64,000 bases of DNA from a virus. Of this stretch, positions 5,218 to 64,000 are shown in pieces. Made by a program: the position numbers and the translations under genes. The stretch lies in the IMG/VR virus record IMGVR_UViG_3300021963_000069, positions 29,551 to 93,550 of that record. One strand, given 5' to 3'. The notes beneath the pieces were generated by a model. It was not told the origin of the DNA and ran no database searches. It saw nothing but the letters and a program-made list of their open reading frames with translations. Position 1 is the stretch's first letter, and the number at the start of each line of letters is the position of its first letter.

Positions 5218-5404
5218 TTATTAGTTCTCTCAATAGTGTTTTAATTTCATTAATATCTTCTTTAATTTGATCCAGTTCTTTTCTTTGAGATTCTCTATTG
5301 TGAATTGTATTTAGATATTGATTATAAGATACAGAATCACAATTCACAATTGCTCCACTATTTTCATCTCTATAAAGATTTTGATGCCCCTTTACTCTAA
5401 TCAT
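5204..5404 (-). CDS. Conserved cyanomyophage hypothetical protein
   Basis: VKGHQNLYRDENSGAIVN plus coiled-coil tail; usual neighbour of the VrlC gene. Confidence 0.75.
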   Translation of the reverse strand: MIRVKGHQNLYRDENSGAIVNCDSVSYNQYLNTIHNRESQRKELDQIKEDINEIKTLLRELINEPR

Positions 5405-8400
5405 CTTACCGCAATTGTTCTGAGTTCTTTAATTCTTGGTGGATATGCCTGATTGGTTCCGGACATTACGATTTTAATTACATATCCATTAAATAATCCA
5501 AGATTATCTGCGGTAAATTCATATTCTTTAAATTGATTTTCTAAACTAGAACTTACAAAAGTATCCGATCTTCCACTATTTTTGGAGGGATTAACGACAG
5601 AATATCCTGCTGAAGTAGTGTATGATAAGTTATCATAACCAGGAAATAGTTCAAATGATTGATCGATTTCGCTCGAATCCGGTCTAAACAAACTATAAAG
5701 AACTCTAAAATCAGCAGATTCGTGGCGATATGCCGACAAGATTACTTTTAGTGATGTTGCGGGTTGAACTAGATTTACTGCTCTTGAAACATATGATGCA
5801 GAATGTGGATCATCTAGTATTGAATTGACTCTTCCATCTAATGTGTAATCAGAAATTGGACTATCCAAACGACTAGAAATAAACTCGGTAAATGCCGTAT
5901 CTAAGAATAATATTGGAGATAAATTAGAATCTGTCGTATTAAAGGTGATTCCGGTCGTGAATGATTTATTTCTTGGTAGAGCATCAAGATATTCCATTTC
6001 ATTTTCTTTGGAACATACAAGTCTTACTGATCTTAATGTATTTAATGAGTTTAATTGAATTGGCTCGTATCCATTATCTAGGAATGAGGTCTCATTTCCA
6101 CTTATACTTGTTCCAGTAACCGATCTAATTACTGCCGAAGTTGATGTAGAAGATCCGGGAGTATTAAGATCATATGTGGGAACTATTGAACTATATAAAA
6201 TATTCTCGGTGGCGAGAACCTTTGAACCTCCTAATTTTGACTCGGAAGCGAATGATAATTGTGGTGCTCCAGCAATGGGTCCATCAGTATTGCTAGTACC
6301 TCTATCAGTTCCGTTTGCTGCTCTATTAACTTTAAGATAATATCCATCTATTCCAATATTTAAATCATCAATATCATGTGTTGTATTAATTCTTCGTAAA
6401 GAAACTCCATTTAACTCATACTTATATAATAGGGCATCTTTCTCATGAGTGATTGAAATTGTAGAATCGATACCTCTAACAATAGTTCCTAGTGATCCAC
6501 TACCAACGGACCCATAACTAATAATCTCATTTCCAATCTTCACATATCCTGGATATGTTGGAGTTACAGTAATTCCTTCAAAAGTACCAAAGTTTGATGT
6601 GTTTCCAATTGAAATTGATGTAGATGTTGAAGGTAAAGAAGAAGTAATCGGAACTGGTGCATTGCTCGAAATAACATCACTTATTCTAAGTTTATTCGTG
6701 TTTCCATACATTTGATGATCAAAATGTTCGACTCTAACATAATTTCCTGAATATTCATTTGTTGAATCCGAACGAGTTAGAACATTAATTCCAGTCACAG
6801 GAACTATTGTATTCGAATTATTATAATAACTTAATTCATAATCAGTTGTTGTACCTGTGGCAAATACTCCCTGAACGCCTTCCAAGTATAAAGTATTGAT
6901 ACTATTACCATCTCCGGTAATAGTAATTCTTGCATCACGCCCGCGTACTGAAGTTCCAGTTCCTACCGTAGAAGTTACAATACCAACAACATCTCCTTTT
7001 TTATAACCATTTCCCCTATTTACAATTACCGGTGTACCAGTAATTGTTCCATTAGTGGCAGTAACATCTAATACGAGTCCAGAACCATTTCCAATAATAT
7101 TATAAGTTTCTACATAAGAATCAGTAACGTAATTGCTACCACCTGTGGTTAGTCCCACACTTGATACTGAACTTCCGGTTCCAACAACATATCCATAAAC
7201 ATAAGTCTTAGATTTATCAACAATTTTTCTACCCACACTTAAATCAGCAATTAATGCTGTGTCTGCTGTTGTGGTAATTCCTAGAGTTGTTCTTTTTGGT
7301 AGAGTTGTTAGTGGATTTTCAGATAGTCTCTGTACATAACCATTACTTTCATCTAATGTTGGATTATTAAAAAATACAGTTCCCGTGGTTGAAGTAAATT
7401 TAGCCTTATAAAGTTTAAACTTAAGATCCTGATATTGGTTTGCGGTCCATATGGATCCATTTTGTGATTTAAACAGACTTCCCATCGAAAATTGCTTGGA
7501 ATATGTAACTGCATCTACATCTGGAAGTGATTTTGTATTTACGGTTTTTTCGCCCATAACCGCAGTCCACATTTCATACTGATCGCTATTTTCTGAAATA
7601 ATTACAACTGCATATTCTCTTCCGGGTGGAAGATAAATTGGTTCTTCAAATGTAACCTTAGTAGCAACAGAAGCATCGGTTGAAGTATTAACTTGATTGG
7701 GTCTTAACGTAACAGGAAATCCAATTACAGTTCTTGTGGGAGTTCCCAGTTCAACAGTTCTAATTTCAACTTTTACTGGAGCATTTCCTGGGTCTTTTTT
7801 AGCAAAAAATAAATCAACAGCAGTTAAAAATGCACCATTTACATCATCATTTGATGATGTGGGTGAAGGAGCCTCTACATTTCCACCAACAACAAATGAT
7901 TGTGCGAGAGGATCAACAAATCTTTGAACTGTTGTTCTTGTATGAGTGTTTATCGTTGTCTGAGAAGTTGTGGTATTTGTTGTAAGATTTGTAACTGTTT
8001 TTGTTGTTAGATTGGATGTTGTTGCGGTTACGGTATTTTCCCACTGTTCTAATGTTCCATCTGAATTATAATTTGTTTCGGTAGATGAATTGTCCGTACT
8101 TCCAGGAAGACCAGGATTATTTGTGGAACTTGAAGTCAATTTAAATGTTTTAGTTCCTGTGGCAATTCTTACAGTTGGAGGTGGAATTGTATTTGGATCT
8201 CTCAGATAAAATGCTCCAATTAAATCTCCAAAATTATCGGAAATTAATCTTAAATCACTTACATATGCCACAGCACCGCTAGACTGTCCAACTAATTGCA
8301 TACCCTTAAGCAAATAACCGGAATATTTTCCTTGTGCTTCTTCCGACAGAGAAGCAGTATCAATATTCAAAATTTTCGATGATTGACTATACTCAGATGA

Positions 8401-11400
8401 TATCGATTCAGTTCTAATATATGGGTTAATTGTATATGTTGTAGATGGAGAATTATAAGGACCATACTTATGATCTGACTTGGCAACTCTGAATGAAATT
8501 AAATTATTACCATCAGAAGATCCAACAACGGTTTCTCCGACTACAAATGCTTTAGTAACATCTCTGATCTCAATTAGTTTTGGAATGAAGTCTACGCCAC
8601 TATTTCCATCAAGGAATTGATAAAATTGAGTAGATGGCTTAAGATTAGATCCAGAAAACTGAGTATTTCTGGATCTCATAAATGATTCATCGGAAGAAGA
8701 TATCAATACATTTCTTATTGTTGTATCAGTATTGCTTACTGTGTCGAAACTTTCTGTTGTTGTAGTATTGGAACTGGTATTAGTAACAGTATTTGATGTT
8801 GAAGTATTATCTGTACCCGCTACTTCGGTCCAATTTCCTTGTCCGAAAATATCTGGAAGATTAACTGTGCTACTTGTTTGAGTATTAATTTGTGGCAAAT
8901 TAACCGAGACATTACTTGTTAAATTATTGGTAAGTGTTCTACTAGAATTTAATGTTACACTGATATTCTTATCGGGAAGTTGAATTGTTCTCACCCAGTT
9001 ATCAATTTCTGGGCTCAATTTAACATCGCCATTATAAACAATTACATTAAAAGGGTTTACATTTTCTACTGTTGTGGCAAATGCTTGTTCTATCCACCCA
9101 ATAGATTCATATTTTAAAGTTACTGCTTTTCCTGTTTTTACTACATTTGGATCGGATAGTGGGAAATTCTCCGAAAGGTCCAAATCTTCATCAATAATAG
9201 AAGTTGCCGGTGTAATTTGAGATTTAAGTGAATTTCTACTAACTATAGGTGTAAGTTCATTAGCAGCAGTATTAACTCTAATGGATGACAATCCTCTATT
9301 AATAAATGTATAATTTTTAAAGTCATCTACAAAAAAACCACTCTTAAATCTATTGTTGCCATCGGCATCTTGAATTTGTAATGTCTGTGTATTCACTTCA
9401 AGTAGAGATAGTGAGGTTACTCTTTCTAAATTTTCTACCCTATCCTCAATTAGACCAATATCCCTCATCGTATATCTTCTATTATCCATTAATGTCACAG
9501 TTGCATTTGCTGGATTATAAAGATATGGTGGCAATTTAATAGTCGCAATTTCCATTACGGCATCACTTTTATCTGGTGCCTTTGGATTCTTTGATGATAT
9601 TCCTTTTTCAAGAATAAAGTTTCCAGTTTTATCTAGATATAATTTATCGATTCTTGGTAAATAATATTCATACCCAAGTAATGAACTTTCATTTGGTGCT
9701 AAAATGGGTGCAGAACTTAAAGTTCTTGATGAGAAATCAAATGGAGAAGAAGTAGTGGATGTAAATACTGGAACTCTTGGTCTAAAATCCAAAGTATCAG
9801 ATGATTTTACAGATCTTGGTCCAATAAAAGGAATATCGTGTGTATACCTTTCTTTATCGTAACTCAATACTGTAAATACATCTCCACTATCATTAGACGG
9901 TACTGAATAATAGTCAAATACAATTAAAAGTTGTTTAGATGGTTCGGTTGTATTCTTATTTCTAACAATTCTAGAATAATCATAGTATTGATCTTTTTGT
10001 CCCTTGTCAAGAGTATATGAATTTGTAATATCCTTATATTTTCCAGGAGTGATAGATTCAATCTCCGTAGTTATATTGGAATCTTCGAATACTACAGATT
10101 CAGAAATTGAAAATCTTTCAGAATTTAAATATATGATTCCGAGTACGTTAGAAAATGGTTTAGAAACAACCCTAGCGATTGCCTTACTACCTTTTCCAAA
10201 AATATTTTCACCAATAATTGCATTTGTGCTCACATCAGAACTGGCACCGAATTGTATTTGGTCTACAACTGGCGCCGAGGAATCAAATGACTCATATACT
10301 GATATTATTTTTACTGCATCTGGGTAGTTTAAAGATATTTCTTCATCCTGAACTCTTAGTCCATAATATTGATTATATGTGAGACCATCTCCGATTGAAG
10401 AGCTGATTCCTGTTCCAGATTCGGGATACTTGGATCTTACTACAGTTAATAGTTGACTTCTATTATATGTTTTTATTTTACTCTGAATTACGTTCTTAAC
10501 TAATGTAGTATTTACAACGATATTTGATTGTGAAGGAATTAATCCACTAATTGTTACAGTATTTCCACTTATTGAAAATTGATCCGAGGTTACCGTACCA
10601 ATTCCACCACCACTATAATGTACTGAATATCTCTCTTGATCAAATGATGCAAAGAATGCACTAGTAATGCCACTAACTGCTGACATATCAAATGACAACA
10701 CTCCGCTGCCATTTGTAGATTCTCCTGCTATCTGTTCAGAAAGTGTTAATAGTGATCCCGAAAGATTTACCGAAGAAATATTAAAATCTGGTAGTTGTGC
10801 ATATAAAAATCCCGAGTTCTGATTTCTTATAATTGGAGCACCAATAAAGATATTACTATAAGTTCCATTTGTTACTGTACCTGAATATACTCCAGAAACA
10901 CCTGGTGTTGCTGCGATAGTTAATGATGTACCATCAGCAGAAACTGCTGATACCCGATTGAATGATTCATCTCCAGTTGTAGTTTGATATCTAACAATTG
11001 ATCCAATTTTTACACCGGTAAAGAATTTTCCAGGACTTACTAATGTATTTCCTCCGCTAATAGTTACCTGAGTGATTCCATTTGGAAATCTAAATCTCTC
11101 AAGTAAACAATCAGCAGTAAAATCTACCGGAAGTCCAGATACTGCAGTTGTTTGTTTTACGGATTTGATATCTTCAGTAGAATATGTTGTTACTGTTCTG
11201 ATACTTCTTGAAAAATCCAGACCATTAACAATTAATTGCTCTCCAACTGAGAAAGTTCCAGAAGTTTGTCTTAAATTAATAGTTGCAGAACTACCCCCTG
11301 CAGCAACAGCAAAACCACTGGCACCACTACTCTTTCCTTTTACAAATGATGTTGCTGGTAATTCTGAATTAGATACTGAGGAATTTAAAACAAGAGTTGT

Positions 11401-12771
11401 ATAAGTTTGAATATCGTAAAGATATAAATCCCAGTTAGTAGCATCATTTGTATATGGAGCGTCAGTCAAACTAAAACTATATACTCGTGCGTTACCAATT
11501 ATATTTCCTGTGGAATTTAGTTGATCATATAAATCTATAGTTAGTTTATTTTTTGGCGTTCCTGATACATTATTAACTCTTATATTATTCCCCATTTCAA
11601 AAGGAATACTTGCAGTTTTAATCAGTTCTGTATCTCTTGGCTTCTCTACATCGATGATTGTTGTTGATATTTTAGCGACATCATATCCCCTTACATAGGC
11701 TTTTCCTGGGGATATTTTCAAACACATCAAATTTTCTGATGGTGTATTATTTTGTTCCGTAGTTTCGGTATCAAAAAATAATCCGTTATTTCCTAGTCTA
11801 TCATTTAGAGAATTATTTACCGTTACATTAAATGGTTCAACAGTATAATCTCCAGACTCGTCATAGGTTCTTTCTGCAATATAATCTTTAATTATATTAT
11901 ATTGAGTTTTTGTCTCAATTTTTTTAATTTTTCCATCTTCAACTCTCAATAATTCAACAAAATCGGTATCATTAGTGTCTGATATTAATTTTTTAGTTAA
12001 AGATAAATTAATCTTAAATCTATCTGCTCCTGGTGCAGCATAGTTTGTAAAACCTTTAGATGGGTCATATAATGAACTATCATCCTTTGCACTAAGAATT
12101 AATTCATCAATTTTTAGACCAATTCGGTATGAAGGTGTGCTTGTGTAATGGTCAAGAATTATAGTTTGTTTAGATACATTTGCAAAATATCCTCTAATAA
12201 AGTAAACTCCATCACCAATAGATGCCGAAGATCCCACAGATGTTGCATCCAATGAAATTAACGATGAAAATGGAGTTCCTGCATTAATTGTGGTGTTTCC
12301 ATAAGTTATATTTTCTTCTGCAATTAATGATTCGCCATCTTGAAAGGGATTAAATTGAAAATTACTATCAGAATCTAAATATTTTACATATATTGTTAGG
12401 TCTTCTACATTATTTGCATCTGGTAAAGAAATAAATTGAATTGTTGCGGTAGTTCCTGATGTCTGACCAATTACCTTTTTACCAATAAAATTATTAATAT
12501 AAAGAGAAATATCAACTCCAAAATTAGTTGGATTAAGTTTTACTGAATTAAAATTTCCATCATAGGCAATATTGCCCGGAATCACCATAGAACCTTCTTT
12601 AAATACATGGCTTCCAAAAGATTTTACCTGATCTTGTAAAATTGATTGAAGAGTCGTTAGTTCTCTTGCCTGTACCGGATATCCAGGTTTAAACAAAACT
12701 TTATAAAAATTCTTCGAAGAATCAAAATCATCATAATAAGGACTGATATTTAAATCTGTTTTTTGTGCCAT
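5401..12771 (-). CDS. Large structural protein, VrlC/DUF4815 family
   Basis: QKTDLNISPYYDDFD, PVQARELTTLQSILQ, NYAAPGADR, RFKSGFFVDDF, DPLAQSF, GSLFKSQNGSIW; follows gp8. Confidence 0.88.
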   Translation of the reverse strand: MAQKTDLNISPYYDDFDSSKNFYKVLFKPGYPVQARELTTLQSILQDQVKSFGSHVFKEGSMVIPGNIAYDGNFNSVKLNPTNFGVDISLYINNFIGKKVIGQTSGTTATIQFISLPDANNVEDLTIYVKYLDSDSNFQFNPFQDGESLIAEENITYGNTTINAGTPFSSLISLDATSVGSSASIGDGVYFIRGYFANVSKQTIILDHYTSTPSYRIGLKIDELILSAKDDSSLYDPSKGFTNYAAPGADRFKINLSLTKKLISDTNDTDFVELLRVEDGKIKKIETKTQYNIIKDYIAERTYDESGDYTVEPFNVTVNNSLNDRLGNNGLFFDTETTEQNNTPSENLMCLKISPGKAYVRGYDVAKISTTIIDVEKPRDTELIKTASIPFEMGNNIRVNNVSGTPKNKLTIDLYDQLNSTGNIIGNARVYSFSLTDAPYTNDATNWDLYLYDIQTYTTLVLNSSVSNSELPATSFVKGKSSGASGFAVAAGGSSATINLRQTSGTFSVGEQLIVNGLDFSRSIRTVTTYSTEDIKSVKQTTAVSGLPVDFTADCLLERFRFPNGITQVTISGGNTLVSPGKFFTGVKIGSIVRYQTTTGDESFNRVSAVSADGTSLTIAATPGVSGVYSGTVTNGTYSNIFIGAPIIRNQNSGFLYAQLPDFNISSVNLSGSLLTLSEQIAGESTNGSGVLSFDMSAVSGITSAFFASFDQERYSVHYSGGGIGTVTSDQFSISGNTVTISGLIPSQSNIVVNTTLVKNVIQSKIKTYNRSQLLTVVRSKYPESGTGISSSIGDGLTYNQYYGLRVQDEEISLNYPDAVKIISVYESFDSSAPVVDQIQFGASSDVSTNAIIGENIFGKGSKAIARVVSKPFSNVLGIIYLNSERFSISESVVFEDSNITTEIESITPGKYKDITNSYTLDKGQKDQYYDYSRIVRNKNTTEPSKQLLIVFDYYSVPSNDSGDVFTVLSYDKERYTHDIPFIGPRSVKSSDTLDFRPRVPVFTSTTSSPFDFSSRTLSSAPILAPNESSLLGYEYYLPRIDKLYLDKTGNFILEKGISSKNPKAPDKSDAVMEIATIKLPPYLYNPANATVTLMDNRRYTMRDIGLIEDRVENLERVTSLSLLEVNTQTLQIQDADGNNRFKSGFFVDDFKNYTFINRGLSSIRVNTAANELTPIVSRNSLKSQITPATSIIDEDLDLSENFPLSDPNVVKTGKAVTLKYESIGWIEQAFATTVENVNPFNVIVYNGDVKLSPEIDNWVRTIQLPDKNISVTLNSSRTLTNNLTSNVSVNLPQINTQTSSTVNLPDIFGQGNWTEVAGTDNTSTSNTVTNTSSNTTTTESFDTVSNTDTTIRNVLISSSDESFMRSRNTQFSGSNLKPSTQFYQFLDGNSGVDFIPKLIEIRDVTKAFVVGETVVGSSDGNNLISFRVAKSDHKYGPYNSPSTTYTINPYIRTESISSEYSQSSKILNIDTASLSEEAQGKYSGYLLKGMQLVGQSSGAVAYVSDLRLISDNFGDLIGAFYLRDPNTIPPPTVRIATGTKTFKLTSSSTNNPGLPGSTDNSSTETNYNSDGTLEQWENTVTATTSNLTTKTVTNLTTNTTTSQTTINTHTRTTVQRFVDPLAQSFVVGGNVEAPSPTSSNDDVNGAFLTAVDLFFAKKDPGNAPVKVEIRTVELGTPTRTVIGFPVTLRPNQVNTSTDASVATKVTFEEPIYLPPGREYAVVIISENSDQYEMWTAVMGEKTVNTKSLPDVDAVTYSKQFSMGSLFKSQNGSIWTANQYQDLKFKLYKAKFTSTTGTVFFNNPTLDESNGYVQRLSENPLTTLPKRTTLGITTTADTALIADLSVGRKIVDKSKTYVYGYVVGTGSSVSSVGLTTGGSNYVTDSYVETYNIIGNGSGLVLDVTATNGTITGTPVIVNRGNGYKKGDVVGIVTSTVGTGTSVRGRDARITITGDGNSINTLYLEGVQGVFATGTTTDYELSYYNNSNTIVPVTGINVLTRSDSTNEYSGNYVRVEHFDHQMYGNTNKLRISDVISSNAPVPITSSLPSTSTSISIGNTSNFGTFEGITVTPTYPGYVKIGNEIISYGSVGSGSLGTIVRGIDSTISITHEKDALLYKYELNGVSLRRINTTHDIDDLNIGIDGYYLKVNRAANGTDRGTSNTDGPIAGAPQLSFASESKLGGSKVLATENILYSSIVPTYDLNTPGSSTSTSAVIRSVTGTSISGNETSFLDNGYEPIQLNSLNTLRSVRLVCSKENEMEYLDALPRNKSFTTGITFNTTDSNLSPILFLDTAFTEFISSRLDSPISDYTLDGRVNSILDDPHSASYVSRAVNLVQPATSLKVILSAYRHESADFRVLYSLFRPDSSEIDQSFELFPGYDNLSYTTSAGYSVVNPSKNSGRSDTFVSSSLENQFKEYEFTADNLGLFNGYVIKIVMSGTNQAYPPRIKELRTIAVR

Positions 12772-29304: not shown

Positions 29305-30004
29305 ATCCTGCTTCTTTTGCGTCTAAACAGAAAGATACGTCCTCTCCACACATATCCTGAACCTCTCCGGATTCAAAAACTTGCATTTTTGGAGCAAACC
29401 ATGGATATTTCATTTCGGAGTGTTCAAAAACTCCTTTTTTAATGAGTAACCAACCAAAACCGGCATAATCCACCGTAAATGGTTTGCGTCTTTTGCTGAT
29501 ACTATCAACTGTTTCGTGATTCATGACTCCACCATTATTGCGGAAGTCATCTTCTTCCATCCAGTGAGCGACAGATGTGGTATGACCGTCTTCTGTGGCG
29601 TACCAACCGGAGGCAATATCCTTATTCATTAGAACAAGTTGCCAAAACTTTTCACTACTGAATACAATATCTGAGTCAATCCATAATTGCCAATCATAGT
29701 TTAGTTTTCCGTCCCATGGAAGTTGATCCGGACCTCTCAGAACATTTGCTCCAAGGCATTTGCAACGAGCAAAGTTTACCATGGAAGAATAGTCTTGAGA
29801 AATCTGAATACTTGCTCCGGACTGAACTAGATCAAAGCAGAGTTGTACAAAATTCTTAAGATAGGTATAGGATACTCCTCTTCCGGGTAAACAGAATACT
29901 ATTGATTTTCCTTTTACTATTTCTTTTGCTAAGTTATAGTCCCATTCTGGTTGACTATCTGATGTAACGGGCGATTTTGCCTTTACTGTGAATCCTTTTG
30001 CCAT
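29246..30004 (-). CDS. GT-A glycosyltransferase-like conserved cyanophage protein
   Basis: ARCKCLG, LWIDSDI (DxD motif), GFGWLLIKKGVFE, GEDVSFC, VGHEK. Confidence 0.8.
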   Translation of the reverse strand: MAKGFTVKAKSPVTSDSQPEWDYNLAKEIVKGKSIVFCLPGRGVSYTYLKNFVQLCFDLVQSGASIQISQDYSSMVNFARCKCLGANVLRGPDQLPWDGKLNYDWQLWIDSDIVFSSEKFWQLVLMNKDIASGWYATEDGHTTSVAHWMEEDDFRNNGGVMNHETVDSISKRRKPFTVDYAGFGWLLIKKGVFEHSEMKYPWFAPKMQVFESGEVQDMCGEDVSFCLDAKEAGFEIWCDPRIRVGHEKTRII

Positions 30005-38626: not shown

Positions 38627-38938
38627 GGGGTGAATTGCTTGAGTACGAATGTAGAATAACAGGGTTGGAGCAGGAAGTCTAGGGGTTCTGTGCCAGTTCC
38701 TAGACTGTCACAATTTCGTGAAGAAATACTTCTGCTTCACTCTGACCTTGGTTATACTGAATCAGTGCGATTTCATCATTGATTTGTTGAAACGAAACAA
38801 TTGTATAATCAATACCTTCAATTGGATCGGGGTCATTCCAAATCAGATTTGCCATTGGGATTTCTCAAGTACGAATGTAGAATAACAGGGTTTGAGGCAT
38901 CCCACAAGGGGTTCTGTGCCACTTTCGCAACTGGCACC

Positions 38939-52486: not shown

Positions 52487-53128
52487 TTAGAGACCGTAAC
52501 GGGATTTTGTTGCGAGGTAGTTCTGTTGGATTTCTGCTGCGGTGAGTGCTCTGTTGTATGCCTGAATAATAGAACAATTTCCTTTCCAAGAACCAGATGC
52601 TGTTTCTCTATTCAACCAAGTTGGTGCTTCTATCGGTACGGAATATACACTTCCGGTTCCAACAAGTACTCCATTTACATAGTATGATGGTGAAGAAGAA
52701 CCAGAAGGTTTGGAAAGAACAACATACACCCACTGGTTTCTATACACTGGTGTAGTTGTAAAATCATTAGCATCAAATTCTATTCTACCGCTGGTATTCC
52801 ACCATATCATAGGTCTTTGAGTTCTAGTATCAATAAAGTTTTTATAAGTTGATGTTGTTTCTGTGGAATATACCCAACCGGCATAGGTTACTGCCTGTCC
52901 TGCCGGTGTGGCAAATGTAGTACTTACATACTGATTAGTTCCGTCAAAAACCAAAGAACCACCATTAGCACTACTGAAAGTTGGTGTGTTAAAAAGAGTT
53001 CCAGTATTCCCATTACCACTCAAATCAGTCCAGGTGGTTCCACTACCGGGATAAGACTTTCTGTTCCCTGCGTCCAGACAAAGAACTAATCCATTAGTAA
53101 CTATTTTACTATTGTAAGCAACTCCCAT
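52487..53128 (-). CDS. LamG/concanavalin A-like domain protein
   Basis: IVTNGLVLCLDA..SYPGSGTTWTDLSGNGN, FDGTNQY, YNRALTAAEIQQNY. Confidence 0.88.
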   Translation of the reverse strand: MGVAYNSKIVTNGLVLCLDAGNRKSYPGSGTTWTDLSGNGNTGTLFNTPTFSSANGGSLVFDGTNQYVSTTFATPAGQAVTYAGWVYSTETTSTYKNFIDTRTQRPMIWWNTSGRIEFDANDFTTTPVYRNQWVYVVLSKPSGSSSPSYYVNGVLVGTGSVYSVPIEAPTWLNRETASGSWKGNCSIIQAYNRALTAAEIQQNYLATKSRYGL

Positions 53129-53161: not shown

Positions 53162-53821
53162 TTAGATATAGCGCGATTTAAGAGCATTATAGTTCTGTCT
53201 GACTTCTGCTGCGGTGAGTGCTCTGTTGTATATGGAGACTTGGGAGATGTTTCCGTTCCAATACTCCCCGCCATTAGTTTGTCTTCCAATTTGAGCACTA
53301 CTTGCAACAGTATTCCAACCTTTTACTGTAGGTCCGGAAACTAATACTCCATTAATATACATAGAAGCATTTGTACCATCATAAACTCCTGCCATATTAA
53401 ACCAAGTATTTAATGGAACACCAGATGCGGTTATATCATTAGCATATCCACCAAATAAATATGTTGAATTATTAATTCCCAAAAATCTTGCTACATTTGT
53501 GGATGCTGATCCATAAGAAACTATAAAATCAAAACTTCCTGATATTGTATTAGTTCTCGCCCACGCCGACAAAGTTCCCGCAGAACTTCCAAACGGAAAT
53601 CCAGTTGATCCCATTGGTACATAATCATCAGTACCATCAAAGGTCAAAGAACCAAAATTAGTTCCAGAATATCCAACTCCACCCTCAAGAGTTCCATTAT
53701 TCCCATTACCACTTCTATCAAACCAATTGAGACCGGTGCGAGGATATGACCATGGACTTGCTGCGTCCAAATGAAGAACTAATCCATTTCTTACTATCTG
53801 TGCTCCGTGAACTAATGCCAT
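53162..53821 (-). CDS. LamG/concanavalin A-like domain protein (tandem paralog)
   Basis: IVRNGLVLHLDA, FDGTDDY, YNRALTAAEVRQNY. Confidence 0.88.
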   Translation of the reverse strand: MALVHGAQIVRNGLVLHLDAASPWSYPRTGLNWFDRSGNGNNGTLEGGVGYSGTNFGSLTFDGTDDYVPMGSTGFPFGSSAGTLSAWARTNTISGSFDFIVSYGSASTNVARFLGINNSTYLFGGYANDITASGVPLNTWFNMAGVYDGTNASMYINGVLVSGPTVKGWNTVASSAQIGRQTNGGEYWNGNISQVSIYNRALTAAEVRQNYNALKSRYI

Positions 53822-54114: not shown

Positions 54115-54837
54115 TTATTCTTCCTTTTTCCATCCTATTCTTCCCCTTTCCCATCCATCGCCAGGATGTTCTCTACTTCTTTTTTCTATTTGTCCGTCAT
54201 TCCACCATTTTAATCCTTTTCTTACCTCGCTCATTTTTTTTCGTGATTCTTCAGTGTGGTTAAAACCTAAACTATATTTGTTTCCTTTCATTATTTCACT
54301 TTGTTTTTTTCTGGTTTCTTCCGTGTGTGATTTACCATAAAATGGATTATTTTCTCCTTTCCTTGCTTCACTTATTTTTCTTCTGGTTTCTTCTGGGCGA
54401 GATTTACCATAACAATGATGGTTTTCTCCTTTATTGGCTTCACTTATTTTTTCTCTGTTTTGTTTTGTGTGTGATTTACCATAAAATGGATTATCTTCTC
54501 CATTATATTTACCTTTCCTTGCTTCACTCATTTTTCTTCTGGTTTCTTCACTTGGAACCCACCCAGAAGGACCATCACCACCATCACTTCTATTATGAAG
54601 AATACCAGTACCTAAATCTTTTCTACCAAATACAGCAACCATATATTCTTCGTGCTTGAATGCTTCTTCTTCGGTAAGATTTTGTTTGAGGAAGATTGCT
54701 CTTGATTTATCTTTTGGTTTGTTACAAGGTTTTCCACTATTATCATTAATTCTATTTCCACTCCCTTTTCCAATATAATAAGGAGTTCTATCTTCCCGCA
54801 AATATGCGTAAGTATAAAATCTGTTAGGATTTACCAT
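54115..54837 (-). CDS. GIY-YIG-type (Seg-like) homing endonuclease with NUMOD3 repeats
   Basis: FYTYAYLRED.TPYYIGKG..R; repeated NPFYGKSHTEETRKKxSE; WWNDG tail. Confidence 0.88.
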   Translation of the reverse strand: MVNPNRFYTYAYLREDRTPYYIGKGSGNRINDNSGKPCNKPKDKSRAIFLKQNLTEEEAFKHEEYMVAVFGRKDLGTGILHNRSDGGDGPSGWVPSEETRRKMSEARKGKYNGEDNPFYGKSHTKQNREKISEANKGENHHCYGKSRPEETRRKISEARKGENNPFYGKSHTEETRKKQSEIMKGNKYSLGFNHTEESRKKMSEVRKGLKWWNDGQIEKRSREHPGDGWERGRIGWKKEE

Positions 54838-54883
54838 TTCTATTCTACTTGGACGGCATTACTATTTATAAGAGTTTATAATA

Positions 54884-54943
54884 GAAAAGGTGCCCCAAGA
54901 GCACCTAATCTTATCTGTAGAGATTGCCGTCCAAACAGACACT
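54884..54943 (-). ncRNA. Candidate small RNA complementary to the leader of the downstream endonuclease mRNA (module 1)
   Basis: AATAAATA (54946-54953), hairpin displaying TTGGACGGCA, AGATT, terminator AGGTGC-loop-GCACCT-TTTC. Confidence 0.6.
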
Positions 54944-54951
54944 CTTATTTA

Positions 54952-55173
54952 TTATACTTCACCACCGAACAAAGAAAAAAGAAAGTACCATACTACGCCC
55001 AAAAGACCCAAAAGAGATGGAATAAACACCATCCAACCAAAGATGATTGGATGTGTCGCAAGAAGATAAACGACGAGTATAATCAATAATACTGCGAAAG
55101 GTAATGTGAGTGTTGCTTTAATTTGAGGAGAAATCATTTTAGTTTCTTTATGTTGTTGATTATCTATTTTCAT
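54952..55173 (-). CDS. Two-TM small membrane protein
   Basis: Two hydrophobic stretches; start probably MISPQ. Confidence 0.65.
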   Translation of the reverse strand: MKIDNQQHKETKMISPQIKATLTLPFAVLLIILVVYLLATHPIIFGWMVFIPSLLGLLGVVWYFLFSLFGGEV

Positions 55174-56466: not shown

Positions 56467-56814
56467 TCAGGGAGTGACCCAATCATAATCGGGAGCAATC
56501 ATTACACGCTCAAATCCATCATACTCATCAATACGATAAGAACCATACACCTCTTCAATTTGAAGATTAGCACAGTCATCACTTGCTTTGTCTCCAAGTT
56601 CTTCTACAACTTGAACCAGAATAGGGTCGTGACGAGGGCAATCAACATAACCCCAACATTCATATTTTCTAGCAGTATCATCATACTTACTTTTGGCATT
56701 TGGATTATACTTTGGGTTTAGTTTCAAATCATAACCAAGTTCCACCATCCTATCCATCGCCTCATTAGAAAGACCGAACCCACCGTAGCAGGCATTATAA
56801 ACAACTTTAGTCAT
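56467..56814 (-). CDS. Conserved phage hypothetical protein
   Basis: KVVYNACYGGFGLS...RHDPILVQVVEELG...IDEYDG; own promoter cassette. Confidence 0.8.
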   Translation of the reverse strand: MTKVVYNACYGGFGLSNEAMDRMVELGYDLKLNPKYNPNAKSKYDDTARKYECWGYVDCPRHDPILVQVVEELGDKASDDCANLQIEEVYGSYRIDEYDGFERVMIAPDYDWVTP

Positions 56815-56838
56815 CAGGTTTCTGTGTGTATGAGACTA

Positions 56839-57099
56839 TTATAGGGCATCCAAGTCGGTTTTGCTGTGCTCTGCGGACACTTTCTTAACTGTCACATCTC
56901 CCTGTTCCTGTATTTTTTTAGCAAGATGTAGAATATCCTCAACCGGAATATTTTCTTTGTAGTTATACTTACGAGCAAATGCCTTGACCATACACTCTAA
57001 AGTAATTCCTTGAAGATGCTCCATACTGATAGGCATTCCGTGAGGTAATGACATCATTTCCAGATTGTAAAAATCGTTGTATCTTTGTAAAATATTCAT
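56839..57099 (-). CDS. Hypothetical protein
   Basis: Coupled to the upstream ORF; its 3' end reads through a promoter cassette. Confidence 0.5.
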   Translation of the reverse strand: MNILQRYNDFYNLEMMSLPHGMPISMEHLQGITLECMVKAFARKYNYKENIPVEDILHLAKKIQEQGDVTVKKVSAEHSKTDLDAL

Positions 57100-57662
57100 T
57101 ATGAAAAGTTGAAATGTAATTTACTATAATAATTTAGGTAGCACGATTTGTCCTTAAGTTCTACAAGTGATGATGGTAAAAGATGACCGTATTTCTCAAA
57201 GAAATCTTCTCTGGATACAAATCTCACTCCCATTAACATCCAAATACCAAAATACGAATGAAACTCACGAACGGCACGATACTCTTGAGAATTGACCGGT
57301 TTATAATTTTGTGGATGAGGAGCATTCTTATCATAATCATCCCCATAAGGAATACTTTGAGAACATAGAACACAAAGAGTTCTGCCGTTCCCAGTCCCAA
57401 AGAAATCACCCACAAGAAATCTCATATACTCCTCTTCGGGTATTTCACCATAAGTTTCATTATACTCCTTCATACAATAATCAGCAATCAACTGATATGC
57501 TTGTTTGGTTTTTTGCGGAAGGATTTTGTTGAACTTATTTTCTTCTTTGTTATTCAGGTATGCGAATGCTTCTTGATATGTTTTGAGTGCTTCTCTTTGT
57601 TCGGCAATTTCAAAAAGTTCATCTGGATAGTTTTCCATTATAGTGCCTCCAAGATAAATCAA
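57099..57662 (-). CDS. Hypothetical protein (start probably MENYP)
   Basis: GGAGG precedes the internal ATG; ends in HFNFS. Confidence 0.65.
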   Translation of the reverse strand: MIYLGGTIMENYPDELFEIAEQREALKTYQEAFAYLNNKEENKFNKILPQKTKQAYQLIADYCMKEYNETYGEIPEEEYMRFLVGDFFGTGNGRTLCVLCSQSIPYGDDYDKNAPHPQNYKPVNSQEYRAVREFHSYFGIWMLMGVRFVSREDFFEKYGHLLPSSLVELKDKSCYLNYYSKLHFNFS

Positions 57663-57696
57663 TTATACACCAAAAACCACTCCTTGTAAAGTACCC

Positions 57697-58620
57697 TTAT
57701 GATAATCTAACTCTTTTGGAAGTGTCTATTCCTCTTTTCTTTTGATATTTCGTAAGTGGTCCGGCAGTTGTAACATATTCAGTTTCAAGGCACATCCACT
57801 TCTGTGAGTTTGTATTTTTTGCTCCTTTTTTACCATCTTCACTCATTTTTTCTTTTGTTCTTTCGTGTACTCCTACACCAAGTTCATAAGTTTTTTTACC
57901 ATTTAATTTACCACTTATTTTACCACCCTTTCTACCGTTTTCACTTTTTTGTTCTGGGGTTAATCCAAAAATCCCTGTTTTATTTTCTTTATGTTTTTTA
58001 CCAGTAATTTTCCCACCTATTTTACCACCTATTTTTCCTCCTTTTTTACCACTTATTTTACCATTTTCACTTCTTTGTTCTGGAGTTAATCCAAAAATCC
58101 CTGTTTTATTTTCTTTATGTTTTTTACCAGTAATTTTCCCACCTATTTTACCATCTTCCGTCATTTGTTCTTTTGTTCTTCCGTGTATTCCTACACCAAG
58201 TTCATAAGATTTTTTACCACTTATTTTACCATTTTCACTTCTTTGTTCTGGGGATATTCCACAAACTCCTACACCAAGTTCTTTTGTTCTTTTACCACCT
58301 ATTTTAGCAGCATTACTGCAAATTTGTAAAGAGATTACTCCACCACAACTTTCATTAAGACACCATTTATCAGTATTATAAAATGGTTTTATCAATCTCT
58401 TTTCAACTTCTTGTGCTTCTATCCAACCTTCGTCGGTGAAATCAAAAAGTTCTAATATCTGTTTCTTTGGAGTATAAAAATTCCAACACCACTTATGTGT
58501 TTTTGGAGAACCCATATAATACTCATTATACCTTTTTTCCTTATGAACTCCATAATAATAGTAAGGAACTTCCTCAAAGGTAATCTTGTATATGTAAATT
58601 CTTGGACTTTGTGAAGTCAT
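57697..58620 (-). CDS. GIY-YIG-type homing endonuclease with Gly/Lys-rich repeats (true start MTSQSPR)
   Basis: IYIYKITF...YYYGVH...YMGS; E..LI; CLNE; repeated GIFGLTPEQRSENG; TATAAATA at 58647-58654 places the start at 58620. Confidence 0.85.
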   Translation of the reverse strand: MTSQSPRIYIYKITFEEVPYYYYGVHKEKRYNEYYMGSPKTHKWCWNFYTPKKQILELFDFTDEGWIEAQEVEKRLIKPFYNTDKWCLNESCGGVISLQICSNAAKIGGKRTKELGVGVCGISPEQRSENGKISGKKSYELGVGIHGRTKEQMTEDGKIGGKITGKKHKENKTGIFGLTPEQRSENGKISGKKGGKIGGKIGGKITGKKHKENKTGIFGLTPEQKSENGRKGGKISGKLNGKKTYELGVGVHERTKEKMSEDGKKGAKNTNSQKWMCLETEYVTTAGPLTKYQKKRGIDTSKRVRLS

Positions 58621-58657
58621 AGTTCTACTTTGTGTTTGGTCTGTATTATTTATACGA

Positions 58658-58711
58658 GAAAAGGTGCCCGAAAGCACCCAATCTCTGCTTCTGCGACCAA
58701 ACACAAGCATC
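58658..58711 (-). ncRNA. Candidate small RNA complementary to the leader of the downstream endonuclease mRNA (module 2)
   Basis: TATAAATA (58714-58721), segment TTGTGTTTGGTC, AGATT, terminator GGTGC-loop-GCACC-TTTTC. Confidence 0.6.
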
Positions 58712-58716
58712 ATTAT

Positions 58717-59097
58717 TTATAATGCCTCCAATTCATCAGCAAGTGCTAAAATGTCCTTAATATTTACAACACCAATTCCGTGGTCTCCATCTATATGGTA
58801 GTTATCATACCCAAGTTCTTCTACTAATGTTCTCAAAACTGCTCCATATTCATAAAAAACTTTTGCTTGAATAGGGTCTCTACCCTCACGAATAAGTTTT
58901 CCCAAAGTAGGAGAACCTTCTGCGATATTTCGTGCTGCTGATACACATTTTTGTGCGATATTATTCATTTTCAGTTTGCGGAGTTTCTGTGTTGCGTATG
59001 CTGTGAGTTCTCTTTTTGATTTTCTCAATTCTTCTACTTCCTCTGGATTAAGTAGAAACCCATCTGCGATATTTCCGTATTCTTCGGTCATTTCCAA
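58717..59097 (-). CDS. Hypothetical protein
   Basis: Co-oriented ORF; ends in LADELEAL, similar to 55530-55748. Confidence 0.6.
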   Translation of the reverse strand: MEMTEEYGNIADGFLLNPEEVEELRKSKRELTAYATQKLRKLKMNNIAQKCVSAARNIAEGSPTLGKLIREGRDPIQAKVFYEYGAVLRTLVEELGYDNYHIDGDHGIGVVNIKDILALADELEAL

Positions 59098-59435
59098 CCA
59101 CCATTAATTGTAGCATAAAACTCATCAAAACAATTTAACCCGTGACATCTCTCCCTCAATCTTTCCAAACTATGGGTCATCAAAAATCCCCAAATAGAAA
59201 ATGCCTCCTTAACTCTCCAATATCCACCACGAAGTTTGAGATAAAGAATATAAAGTTCTTCATTCATCTCTAATCTCCTTTAACCATTGGGCGAATTCAA
59301 TCCATTTTGTATCGTTGAATGCTTCTTGGAGAACTTCAGCATTAGGTTCGTGGTTTATTCTATGAATTAATATTTTCATCTCATTACGAATAAGAACCCG
59401 CTGCCTATTAACCATTTCGCATATTTGTAAGTCAG

Positions 59436-59795
59436 TCATATAAGAACCTCATAAGACTTTCCATTAAACTTCCAGTCAATCTGGATTTTTTGTTTATCTA
59501 TACTATAAAATACCCGTAGTTTTTTACAGGCACCACCATCCTCAAAGGGATGTTCAAAGAGGGAGTGTCTCATCGTATCTAAAATATCAGTTGTGATGGG
59601 TTCAAACATATAACGATTAAACTCAAGAGTGCTTTTAATTGCCGAAAGCATATAATCATAATACTCTTCTTCGGGTTTTGACTTCCAGTATTTCTTTGAG
59701 AGTTTTACTTTCTCATCACTTACTGGAGCGTAAGGAGAATACTCAAATGCTTCCGTATCTATTTCATAATATGTGGTGTCTGTGATGTCTTTCAT
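59436..59795 (-). CDS. Hypothetical protein
   Basis: ATGA-coupled operon member. Confidence 0.6.
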   Translation of the reverse strand: MKDITDTTYYEIDTEAFEYSPYAPVSDEKVKLSKKYWKSKPEEEYYDYMLSAIKSTLEFNRYMFEPITTDILDTMRHSLFEHPFEDGGACKKLRVFYSIDKQKIQIDWKFNGKSYEVLI

Positions 59796-60055
59796 TCGTT
59801 ACTCATCTTCTCCAGTTCCTCGGCAAGATGAATTATAGCATCTTTTACCCATAATTGTCCTTTAATGAAATGATGCTTTTCAATAGAAAATTCCCTATAA
59901 GGGTTCGGTTCTATGTTGAGACTTTCTACTGCCTCACGAAGAGCATTCGCAATAGCATTATTATTGAGGTCTTGAACCACAAAATCTACTCTCTTATTTG
60001 CGAAGGTAGAATAAAATTTATCCACAATTAGTTCCGCTCTACTTCTTGTACTCAT
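59792..60055 (-). CDS. Hypothetical protein
   Basis: Coupled operon member. Confidence 0.6.
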   Translation of the reverse strand: MSTRSRAELIVDKFYSTFANKRVDFVVQDLNNNAIANALREAVESLNIEPNPYREFSIEKHHFIKGQLWVKDAIIHLAEELEKMSNE

Positions 60056-60217
60056 AATTTTTCACCACAATAATCCATACCATTCCAGATTTCGTGTTTG
60101 ATAATTTCTTCAAAACATTCCCCCAACGAGGATGATATACCATTATACTCATTAATTCCATCTGGTCCAGTATATAATTCCCAAGTGTAGTTGCCGTCTC
60201 CGGGATGATATAAGATT

Positions 60218-60568
60218 TCAACTTTCATTCAGTTTCTCCTGAAGTTGTTCTGGTGTAAATGTAGTTTCATCAATCATAAGACCCAATATTTCTTTAGAAG
60301 GATTTTTTACATCGTAATCACAGTAATACATTTTACTACCTTGATAATAAGTTCTTCCATTCTTATCTTCAAGATAGTTGATGTCTCCAACATAAAGAGA
60401 TTTGTTCTTTTTAGCAGAAAAATATCTATCCAAAAAATCTGGATATTTATTCACAAAATCTGGTGATTTAATATCATCCAAGAAACATCGTTCTTCTTTA
60501 TGAGGTTCTTCTTTGGAAACTAACCGAAACCCAAATCGGGCAAGTAATTTGTTGAGTAAGTTAATCAT
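60218..60568 (-). CDS. Hypothetical protein
   Basis: ATGA-coupled operon member. Confidence 0.6.
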   Translation of the reverse strand: MINLLNKLLARFGFRLVSKEEPHKEERCFLDDIKSPDFVNKYPDFLDRYFSAKKNKSLYVGDINYLEDKNGRTYYQGSKMYYCDYDVKNPSKEILGLMIDETTFTPEQLQEKLNES

Positions 60569-63768: not shown

Positions 63769-64000
63769 TTGTTTGGTTGCTTATGAGGTTATTATAAGGC
63801 ATCTTGAGGAAGATTTCAAGTGCCCCTGTGCCAGTTCGTCAAGTGTCCTTATAAGGCATCACCTGCTTATATTTCAGGGCAAAGTGTCGGTAAGCACCCA
63901 TAGCAATTTTAGGCATCCAATCACTATGATAACGTAATGGAAGAGTTAAGTTAGAACAGAACTCCCGTGCCTTATTTCGCAATAAAGAGTTTTCATCCTC

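Follow-up and report, generated by a model that had tools for sequence, protein, structure and literature searches.

Homing endonucleases are tolerated only if they are nearly silent. For I-TevI, I-TevII, I-TevIII and segB of phage T4 and for mobE of phage Aeh1, a translational mask with a nested late promoter is established (reviewed in PMC2988022). There, and by prediction in the leader described here, the structure that hides the start is specific to transcripts begun upstream, a TATAAATA promoter gives late RNA that lacks the inhibitory arm, and the genes so regulated are GIY-YIG or HNH homing-endonuclease genes of T4-like phages. In related work, Dassa et al. (2009; PMC2677866) described TATAAATA-containing hairpins upstream of free-standing endonuclease genes at "fractured gene" loci in ocean metagenomes. 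As described, these too are conserved 5'-UTR hairpins of phage-like environmental endonuclease genes, with a T4-type late promoter and two mutually complementary motifs. In contrast to our element, the accessible part of that report mentions no terminator in the loop, outer promoter box or covariation survey; the comparison is by description rather than by sequence. Finally, the PeSLs of T4-like phages are composite terminator/early-promoter cassettes (PMC2839356, PMC4122927) and resemble the leader as short modules of conserved stem-loop and promoter, repeated in variable regions at the borders of gene insertions or replacements. Unlike the leader, they carry early promoters and are independent of endonuclease genes and of any masking helix.

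The DNA analyzed here comprises positions 29,551 to 93,550 of IMG/VR record IMGVR_UViG_3300021963_000069 (64,000 nt in all, which we call the window). Its genes include those for T4-like baseplate and head-completion proteins, and among cultured phages its nearest relatives are Kyanoviridae. Judged by its sequence, the stretch at 58620-58721 on the minus strand is a control unit of about 100 bases that precedes a selfish nuclease gene of a T4-like cyanophage. The pieces that an earlier note had listed in this stretch are all present, base-exact and in the order claimed. The features of the locus and its surroundings are as follows.

58721-58714, minus strand: P1, outer late-promoter-like box TATAAATA, overlapping the TAA stop codon of the upstream ORF (58717-59097)
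58694..58710, minus strand: 5' arm of the long-range masking helix, with the perfect core TTGTGTTTGGTC of a 12-nt inverted repeat at 58706-58695
58687..58708, minus strand: SL1, a stem-loop with the tag in its loop; outer stem GCTT/AAGC (GCUU/AAGC as RNA; 58708-58705 / 58690-58687) plus inner UGU/GCA; its 5' strand is common with the long helix
58657..58679, minus strand: intrinsic-terminator-like hairpin GGTGCT-TTCG-GGCACC (58678-58663), with a UUCG-type loop, and its TTTTCT tract (UUUUCU as RNA; 58662-58657); the best terminator-like site in 56500-60500
58657..58708, minus strand: predicted RNA of ~50 nt that would arise if P1 fires and the hairpin terminates
58654-58647, minus strand: P2, inner late promoter TATAAATA, within the loop of the long helix
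58625..58642, minus strand: 3' arm of the masking helix, with perfect core GACCAAACACAA at 58641-58630, stopping 4 nt short of the AUG; also the 5' end of the predicted P2 transcript; the core is followed by AGTAGAACT and then the ATG at 58620
57697..58620, minus strand: homing-endonuclease-like gene, 307 aa, with a GIY-YIG-like N terminus and repeated Gly/Lys-rich C-terminal modules
57662..57690, minus strand: sigma-70-like early promoter TTTACA-17-TATAAT of the next gene (11/12 positions match), directly 3' of the nuclease stop codon
54835..54953, minus strand: module 1, the other leader copy of the window, whose tag differs (TTGGACGGCA / TGCCGTCCAA; 105 bits)
54115..54837, minus strand: nuclease gene of module 1, 240 aa; NUMOD3 repeats (1.5e-38) and, at the N terminus, a GIY-YIG-type motif

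Several features set the leader apart from the T4 and Aeh1 masks. Its arms are separated by 53-80 nt, with an intrinsic-terminator hairpin between them; a conserved late-promoter-like box and an alternative local stem-loop belong to the upstream arm itself; and the whole leader is portable and common to several nuclease families, with matched arms that are highly variable. The leader extends the known T4 model by placing a terminator within the mask and by adding a second late-promoter box, also conserved. A further difference concerns the masked stretch, where no Shine-Dalgarno sequence is recognizable. Sequestration of a ribosome binding site would therefore mean occlusion of the 30S landing region here, which is less direct than in T4.

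The complementarity between 58695-58706 and 58630-58641 that the earlier note had reported is 100%, an inverted repeat whose arms are separated by 53 nt. This 12-nt core stands, but the true extent of the pairing is longer (58710-58694 with 58642-58625). The 131-nt stretch around these arms has a minimum free energy of -45.1 kcal/mol (z = -6.5), matched by 0 of 200 shuffles. Perfect inverted repeats of at least 12 nt with loops of at most 80 nt occur at 6 places in the 64-kb window, where ~1 is expected, and for this reason a single copy of the leader is in itself no more than suggestive. The decisive support for the element comes from comparison of sequences across its copies.

The leader occurs twice in the window, and viral contigs contain more than 120 distinct copies of it. 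Cultured cyanophages that carry it include S-SRM01 (six copies) and B3 (three copies), with B23 counted as a third carrier by a match to the gene only. We recovered 83 distinct cassettes of identical architecture via the terminator motif, and the same architecture recurs at nuclease-anchored loci with different terminator sequences as well as in S-SRM01 and B3. The order of parts is constant: [A/C]TAAATA (P1), SL1 with its variable tag, the hairpin and U-tract, TATAAATA (P2), the complement of the tag, an A-rich stretch, and the ATG of a homing-endonuclease gene. Downstream of the leader family, the ORFs carry NUMOD3, HNH or GIY-YIG, and at the family level they are homing endonucleases of T4-like phages. 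A search of Rfam with the leader element returned zero family matches.

Across distinct cassettes the long helix spans 15-17 bp and ends 0-7 nt from the AUG, typically 4-5 nt. In a structure-blind MAFFT alignment of leaders, 94.4% of cells are paired over 15 pairs, compared with 37-52% in slid controls, and double-sided changes occur at 11 pairs. The covariation score of 0.427 (0.153 in shuffles) is reached by none of 500 shuffles. In 45 further distinct sequences, whose alignment was fitted to the model, double changes are found at 21/21 pairs, including 6 in the terminator. Cognate 5' regions and 3' leaders pair at a mean of -23.1 kcal/mol, versus -11.4 kcal/mol for non-cognate combinations, and for 81 of 83 the cognate partner ranks first or nearly so. 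The translation initiation region is thus included in a stable helix (15-17 bp, mean -23 kcal/mol), whereas the predicted P2 leader alone is unstructured (0 to -3 kcal/mol). The tag core varies about as much as unconstrained positions do, yet retains its complementarity, and its conserved complements lie only in the leader of its own gene. The earlier note had named such a pattern as the support to look for, and the survey bears it out: tags vary among loci and are almost always complementary to the adjacent leader. The pairing is therefore real and under selection, and with more than 120 natural variants that retain it, this is an unusually well-supported phage RNA structure.

The local parts of the upstream arm are conserved as well. 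The stem equivalent to SL1 covaries among 82 aligned leaders, and 73 distinct 5' regions have a mean folding z of -2.1. The terminator-like element is a G+C-rich hairpin followed directly by a U-tract, which is short (3-4 U); divergent copies have other stem sequences at this site, with GAAA or UUCG loops and compensatory changes at 6/6 stem pairs. The upstream arm thus has, as the earlier note had proposed, a late-promoter-like box, a stem-loop and a terminator hairpin, the box conserved and the other two covarying, and therefore all parts for a separate RNA of ~50 nt are present. Assembled contigs from RNA libraries (metatranscriptomes) match relatives of the upstream gene and pieces of several cassettes. 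They are interrupted where the terminator/P2 sequence recurs and carry no information on RNA starts, RNA ends or expression.

P2 is TATAAATA in 81/82 leaders (the exception, L035, has ACTAAATA) and in 44/45 further leaders, a total of 125/127; in phage B3 it is TCTAAATA. It sits between the arms, 5 nt ahead of the 3' arm, and so forms a nested late promoter at the level of motifs. The late-promoter motif of cyanomyoviruses is NATAAATA (PMC2984593).

We consider it probable, with moderate confidence, that the leader is an insulated, portable, late-only cassette of free-standing homing-endonuclease genes in T4-like (Kyanoviridae-type) cyanophages. Flanked by the end of an early gene on its upstream side and by the next gene's resident early promoter on the other, the cassette would confine nuclease synthesis to transcripts begun at P2. 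Its sequence and covariation suggest that the hairpin and U-tract would halt part of the incoming upstream transcription. RNA that includes the upstream arm would form the 15-17 bp helix, at -22 to -5 relative to the AUG; the helix itself is shown by covariation and, by analogy with T4, would block ribosome loading. Because P2 lies inside the loop, late transcripts would start at the 3' arm without the mask and have an A-rich, unstructured, translatable leader. SL1 would be the shape of the upstream arm as long as its distal partner is missing or not yet made. Late in infection P1 would produce the upstream arm too, which would then be a by-product or a further, dampening RNA. The earlier note had read the upstream arm as a discrete RNA acting in trans. 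The pairing and the parts on which it relied hold, but at the core lies a mask that a nested late promoter bypasses, and this is the known mechanism of T4, the very case that the note had counted against its own interpretation.

The surroundings fit an insulated insertion, since the nuclease stop codons abut a resident element that is also present nuclease-free. The early promoter at 57662..57690 is a degenerate copy of this element, which recurs throughout the early region and is found at least 12 times without a nuclease. It is also the PeSL-like element of the window, a GGACACTT-N4-AACTGGCACA...TATAAT unit that lies 3' of the nuclease gene. We rejected the leader itself as a PeSL cassette, as its boxes are late-type only and it has no early (sigma-70-type) promoter. 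A search for an empty allele of the 58620-58721 site found few relatives of the upstream gene, and the sole syntenic locus (L079) has a different nuclease and leader in that very place.

Against a purely cis-acting mask stands P1, for which such a model has no role although the box is conserved at every position, including one irrelevant to stop codons. It is possible, though we regard it as doubtful, that P1, SL1 and the terminator form a real late small-RNA gene whose ~50-nt product uses its loop and the 5' strand of its stem to pair in trans with the P2 mRNA at the 5' end, dampening nuclease translation, with the cis mask a secondary or additional layer. TAAATA of P1 is invariant in 82/82 aligned leaders and present in 44/45 further distinct copies despite unrelated upstream genes; the preceding base is A or C, never G or T, and the middle A, needed by no stop codon, never varies. 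Overall, P1 is lacking from just one of 128 copies. Moreover, within the contig of this phage the 60 nt upstream of gene starts are enriched for [A/C]TAAATA (A, 23/40; C, 6/12) but not for T- or G-TAAATA (3/38 and 3/37), and CTAAATA itself serves as P2 in B3. P1 thus matches this phage's own late-promoter spectrum, its promoter activity being putative. The spacing from P1 to SL1 mirrors that from P2 to the 3' arm. The predicted RNA folds as the covarying SL1 plus the terminator hairpin (-20.6 kcal/mol; z = -2.9, with a second z given as -4.3), its apical loop hexamer complements the first bases of the predicted P2 transcript, and its tag core is variable yet complementary, as in specificity determinants. 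On the other side, covariation fits a cis hairpin equally and does not separate cis from trans. TAAATAA doubles as the stop codon of about two-thirds of upstream ORFs, which may account for part of the conservation of P1, and P1 is the full TATAAATA in just 12/83 cassettes and may be weaker than P2. Nor are tags within one genome more orthogonal than random (2/24 same-contig pairs cross-pair, versus 10% of random pairs), and one contig has two cassettes with an identical tag. Finally, there is no obvious rationale for producing a repressor together with its target.

Two further readings concern what the RNA would serve. The long helix could be chiefly an element of RNA processing or stability, a site for a double-strand-specific RNase that parts the upstream message from the nuclease mRNA or a protection of the 3' end of the upstream gene, rather than a translational mask. 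A helix of 15-17 bp around a terminator at an mRNA boundary would suit this role, SL1 and the hairpin would shield the 3' end of the upstream message, and T4 homing-endonuclease transcripts are processed by RNase E (PMC2988022). We think this very unlikely, because the helix consistently reaches to ~5 nt from the AUG and its 3' arm is in every case bracketed by P2 and the start codon, a placement that processing does not need, and because the helix is short compared with a classical RNase III substrate. The suggestion in the earlier note that the short RNA is a guide or cofactor of the nuclease protein draws on nothing but its position next to the nuclease gene, and it is contradicted by the shuffling of tags and nuclease families, which we take to leave it almost no probability. 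The tag of the window stands unchanged before a different nuclease family in L064 and S-SRM01, tag GTCTGTTTGGACGGCAA precedes at least four different N termini, and one nuclease family, that beginning MTSQS, carries many different tags. In addition, the tag's sole conserved complement is its own leader.

If the small RNA exists, it would resemble IS10 RNA-OUT/RNA-IN and the type I toxin-antitoxin regulators in that it is a stem-loop whose loop pairs with the very 5' end of an mRNA and blocks ribosome binding, the encoded DNA-cutting or mobility protein being potentially harmful. Those regulators, however, are transcribed from the strand opposite their target, and type I toxins are small membrane peptides. 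Here one strand would encode both RNAs in tandem, a nuclease would stand in for the "toxin", and action in trans is putative. The label "type I antitoxin-like" in the earlier note thus does not apply, as the genes under the leader encode nucleases of 150-320 aa. Should P1 fire, small-RNA regulation of selfish phage genes could be tested in culture, where S-SRM01 offers six copies. Such same-strand, tandem "anti-leader" RNAs would be the first class of trans-acting regulatory small RNAs in T4-like phages, and would bring ready-made orthogonal pairs of tag and anti-tag. The matched tag pairs could serve as natural orthogonal parts for translational control. More broadly, one exchangeable, self-insulating control unit appears to serve a whole guild of nucleases (GIY-YIG, HNH and NUMOD3-bearing) in freshwater T4-like cyanophages.

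The 307-aa nuclease has 32 relatives in viral contigs, each with a leader of this type upstream. The "GIY-YIG" label given to it earlier is plausible from its motif, with a visible RIY-N10-YYG...R...E...N spacing, and from ESM features, by which the ten best named clusters are all GIY-YIG/SegE, at 0.95. Profile searches and a fold model did not confirm it: Pfam gave nothing at E = 1 or better, PHROGs nothing useful and a PDB profile search no relevant match, while an AlphaFold model of the N-terminal 100 aa was unusable (pLDDT 40). In hhalign, the motif regions of this protein and the module 1 nuclease were aligned at a non-significant probability of 0.2%. The gene also contains a 126-bp tandem repeat. 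An N-terminal extension to the in-frame ATG at 58713, which a mechanical ORF call would include, was rejected, as a 1-nt indel breaks the frame in the S-SRM01 homologue, which also lacks an ATG at that point. In annotation, the nuclease ORF should accordingly stop short of this upstream in-frame ATG.

On the minus strand, the leader of the 307-aa nuclease gene carries exactly the elements that the earlier note had read there, and in the same order:

58721-58714, minus strand: outer late-promoter-like box (P1), TATAAATA, overlapping the TAA stop of ORF 58717-59097
After P1, minus strand: local stem GCTT/AAGC, by sequence inspection
58706-58695, minus strand: 5' arm (tag), TTGTGTTTGGTC, by sequence inspection
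58678-58657, minus strand: hairpin GGTGCT-TTCG-GGCACC followed by TTTTCT, listed as terminator-like by the site scan
58654-58647, minus strand: inner late promoter (P2), a second TATAAATA, by sequence inspection
58641-58630, minus strand: 3' arm, GACCAAACACAA, by sequence inspection
Between the 3' arm and the ATG at 58620, minus strand: AGTAGAACT, by sequence inspection

The perfect 12-nt complementarity of the two arms, also claimed in that note, was recovered by an inverted repeat search, with 53 nt between them, and a 131-nt stretch of the leader folds at -45.1 kcal/mol (z = -6.5). Because perfect inverted repeats of such size and spacing occur at 6 places in the window versus about 1 expected, the single copy is only suggestive. 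A further perfect 12-nt inverted repeat with a 30-nt loop, at 5297-5350 just downstream of the giant ORF 5401-12771, is probably a terminator. Over 58620-58713 no stop codon interrupts the nuclease frame, and the ORF mechanically reaches an ATG at 58713. We rejected this start because in the cultured Synechococcus phage S-SRM01 the homologous leader is shifted by a 1-nt indel and lacks an ATG at the equivalent position; the true start is therefore 58620 and the leader is non-coding. Gene callers are likely to give the window nuclease a false 31-aa N-terminal extension.

The leader belongs to a large family. The S-SRM01 copy is 82% identical to that of the window, with homology that starts exactly at the TAAATA box beside an unrelated upstream gene, and its arms (TTGTGTTTCGCAA and TTGCGAAACACAA) differ from those of the window in a compensatory manner. 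Searching viral contigs with the terminator motif returned at least 118 stretches, which together with the window yielded at least 83 distinct complete cassettes (leader plus homing-endonuclease gene). A scan anchored on the nuclease protein, which is free of bias toward the terminator sequence, gave 32 loci with the architecture unchanged and, in several, a different hairpin sequence (GAAA or UUCG loops). With a covariance model made from 82 leaders, only two copies are detected within the window (58620-58721 and, for module 1, 54835-54953) and many more outside it, including six in S-SRM01 and three in phage B3; phage B23 matched through its nuclease gene only. The window comes from a viral contig of 93.5 kb in which T4-like baseplate and head-completion genes are present.

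In all copies (alignment A2), [A/C]TAAATA (P1) is followed by a spacer of about 5 nt, a stem-loop (SL1) showing the variable tag in its loop, a short spacer, a hairpin with a short U-tract, TATAAATA (P2, in some copies with a TATAAAC half-copy in front), a spacer of about 4 nt, the tag complement, and an A-rich stretch of [A/G]TAGAA type before the ATG. RNAduplex extends the distal pairing beyond the 12 nt first noticed, typically to 15–17 bp ending 4–5 nt before the AUG. This long helix employs the 5' strand of SL1, and the two structures are therefore mutually exclusive.

In a structure-blind MAFFT alignment, 94.4% of cells in the 15 pairs of the long helix are paired, with changes on both sides at eleven pairs (252 cells). 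The covariation score, 0.427 versus 0.153 in shuffles, was reached by none of 500 shuffles, and sliding the partner by 1–3 columns leaves only 37–52% of cells paired. SL1 is 83% paired in a structure-blind alignment, where one subgroup is out of register, with both-side changes in 5 of 7 pairs. Among 45 further distinct sequences, double changes occur at all 21 pairs, including six in the terminator, and 95.6% of cells pair, in an alignment made to the covariance model and hence favorable to the structure. Without any alignment, 5' regions pair with their own leaders at a mean of -23.1 kcal/mol and with other leaders at -11.4, and the cognate leader ranks first or close to first among possible partners for 81 of 83 cassettes. 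The two exceptions, L034:2805-2939 and L040:1659-1793, retain P1, SL1, and the terminator, but the end of P2, the 3' arm, and the nuclease gene are gone; each resembles the scar of a cassette deletion or an orphan upstream half. The covariation and the alignment-free pairing thus bear out the prediction that tags would vary yet complement the adjacent leader. At the level of sequence comparison, these data show real helices maintained by selection, together with conserved motifs.

Such an arrangement has clear relatives. In T4 I-TevI, I-TevII, I-TevIII, and segB and in Aeh1 mobE, RNAs begun at upstream promoters fold into a stable structure that covers the start site, and the position of a late promoter keeps the inhibitory arm out of late transcripts (PMC2988022). 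The leader family here follows the same logic and shows the sequence-testable features of that group. It differs in having a terminator inside the mask, an outer late-promoter box, an alternative stem-loop, and no visible Shine-Dalgarno sequence, and in being a portable unit that serves different nuclease families and whose matched arms vary greatly. As portable regulatory modules, the nearest concept is that of PeSL cassettes, which, however, use early promoters (PMC4122927). One metagenomic study describes similar TATAAATA-containing hairpins upstream of endonuclease genes (PMC2677866). Rfam has no family matching the leader element, and our literature search found no published description of the cassette as such, which extends the known T4-family control design. 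We infer promoter use, termination, and a translational effect of the leader and regard a mask acting in cis as the probable core mechanism. The terminator inside the loop would insulate the nuclease from early transcription, the long helix would handle read-through transcripts, and a resident early promoter downstream would restart transcription of the next gene. The P2 leader alone is predicted to be unstructured.

The earlier note had proposed instead a discrete small RNA from the upstream half, acting in trans. The two ideas are not exclusive, and covariation is unable to separate cis from trans pairing. A purely cis model leaves P1 without a role, yet P1 is kept in 82 of 82 aligned and 44 of 45 further distinct copies, beside unrelated genes. 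Part of this conservation may reflect a built-in stop, as TAAATAA supplies the stop of about two thirds of upstream ORFs (the first TAA for 24, the one four nt later for 27). The middle A of P1, which no stop codon needs, is nonetheless invariant, and the preceding base is only A or C. Within 60 nt upstream of gene starts in the phage's own contig, [A/C]TAAATA is enriched (A, 23/40; C, 6/12), whereas [T/G]TAAATA is not (3/38 and 3/37). Given this enrichment, the reported cyanomyovirus late motif NATAAATA (PMC2984593), and the CTAAATA that serves as P2 in B3, P1 looks like a real late promoter. The RNA predicted from it, about 50 nt long (58708-58657), adopts SL1 and the terminator hairpin (z = -2.9; module 1, -4.3), and its apical loop complements the initial bases of the transcript predicted from P2. 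Against a trans-acting RNA, tags within a genome are no more orthogonal than random, and P1 is usually not the full TATAAATA. We consider a functional trans RNA less likely than the cis mask, which we favor as the core mechanism.

Several families are represented among the ORFs that follow the leader, with NUMOD3 repeats, HNH, or weak GIY-YIG matches; the module 1 nuclease matches NUMOD3 at 1.5e-38. The 307-aa protein had been called GIY-YIG type. It has no Pfam or PDB-profile match, and AlphaFold gave no usable model, but an RIY-N10-YYG...R...E...N motif and ESM feature neighbors that are all GIY-YIG/SegE (0.95) make it a likely, though unproven, GIY-YIG nuclease. Within its gene lies a tandem duplication of 126 bp (93% match; 57918-58153) with 12/24-bp sub-repeats (also 57996-58063). 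The repeats encode Gly/Lys-rich modules, and homologue lengths of 196 to 322 aa imply gains and losses of length in the presumed DNA-binding region. In contig L064 and in S-SRM01, the window's tag is found with a nuclease of another family, and one tag stands before four or more different N-termini; judging from these combinations, leaders and nucleases are shuffled independently. L079:1701-3346 is syntenic with window 57099-59097 (upstream-gene homologue, 61% identity; downstream, 93%) and holds a different nuclease family and leader tag between the same flanking genes, which indicates cassette replacement at a single locus. About 40 aa at the N terminus of the upstream small protein (EMTEEYGN...ELRKSKRELT; window 58970-59097) recur in different small ORFs of the related contigs L047, L084, and L103, at two places each, and appear to be an N-terminal module common to several early proteins.

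Directly after the stop codon of the nuclease there is usually a conserved, PeSL-like unit, GGACACTT-N4-AACTGGCACA, with a -35 box often contained in a hairpin and TATAAT about 25 nt further on. It is present at least 12 times in the early region of the window without any nuclease, again with upstream stop codons directly abutting it:

Near 63836, 62786, 60823, 56467, 56138, 45746, 43671, 42847, 39738, 38698, and 37142, minus strand: GGACACTT-N4-AACTGGCACA unit
Near 38929 and 40275, plus strand: GGACACTT-N4-AACTGGCACA unit

This recurrence identifies it as an early-promoter element belonging to the phage itself, and the nuclease cassette is, by its sequence context, an insertion between an upstream stop codon and this resident promoter. 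That homing-endonuclease stops abut it in many contigs suggests that the element marks the insertion site or target. The element after the studied nuclease is degenerate, yet scores 11/12 as a sigma-70-type promoter. Elsewhere on the minus strand, AATAAATA boxes precede two adjacent paralogous ORFs of ~215 aa (52487-53128 and 53162-53821) with common motifs GNGNxGTL, FDGT, and YNRALTAAE, whose products may be lectin-like virion proteins.
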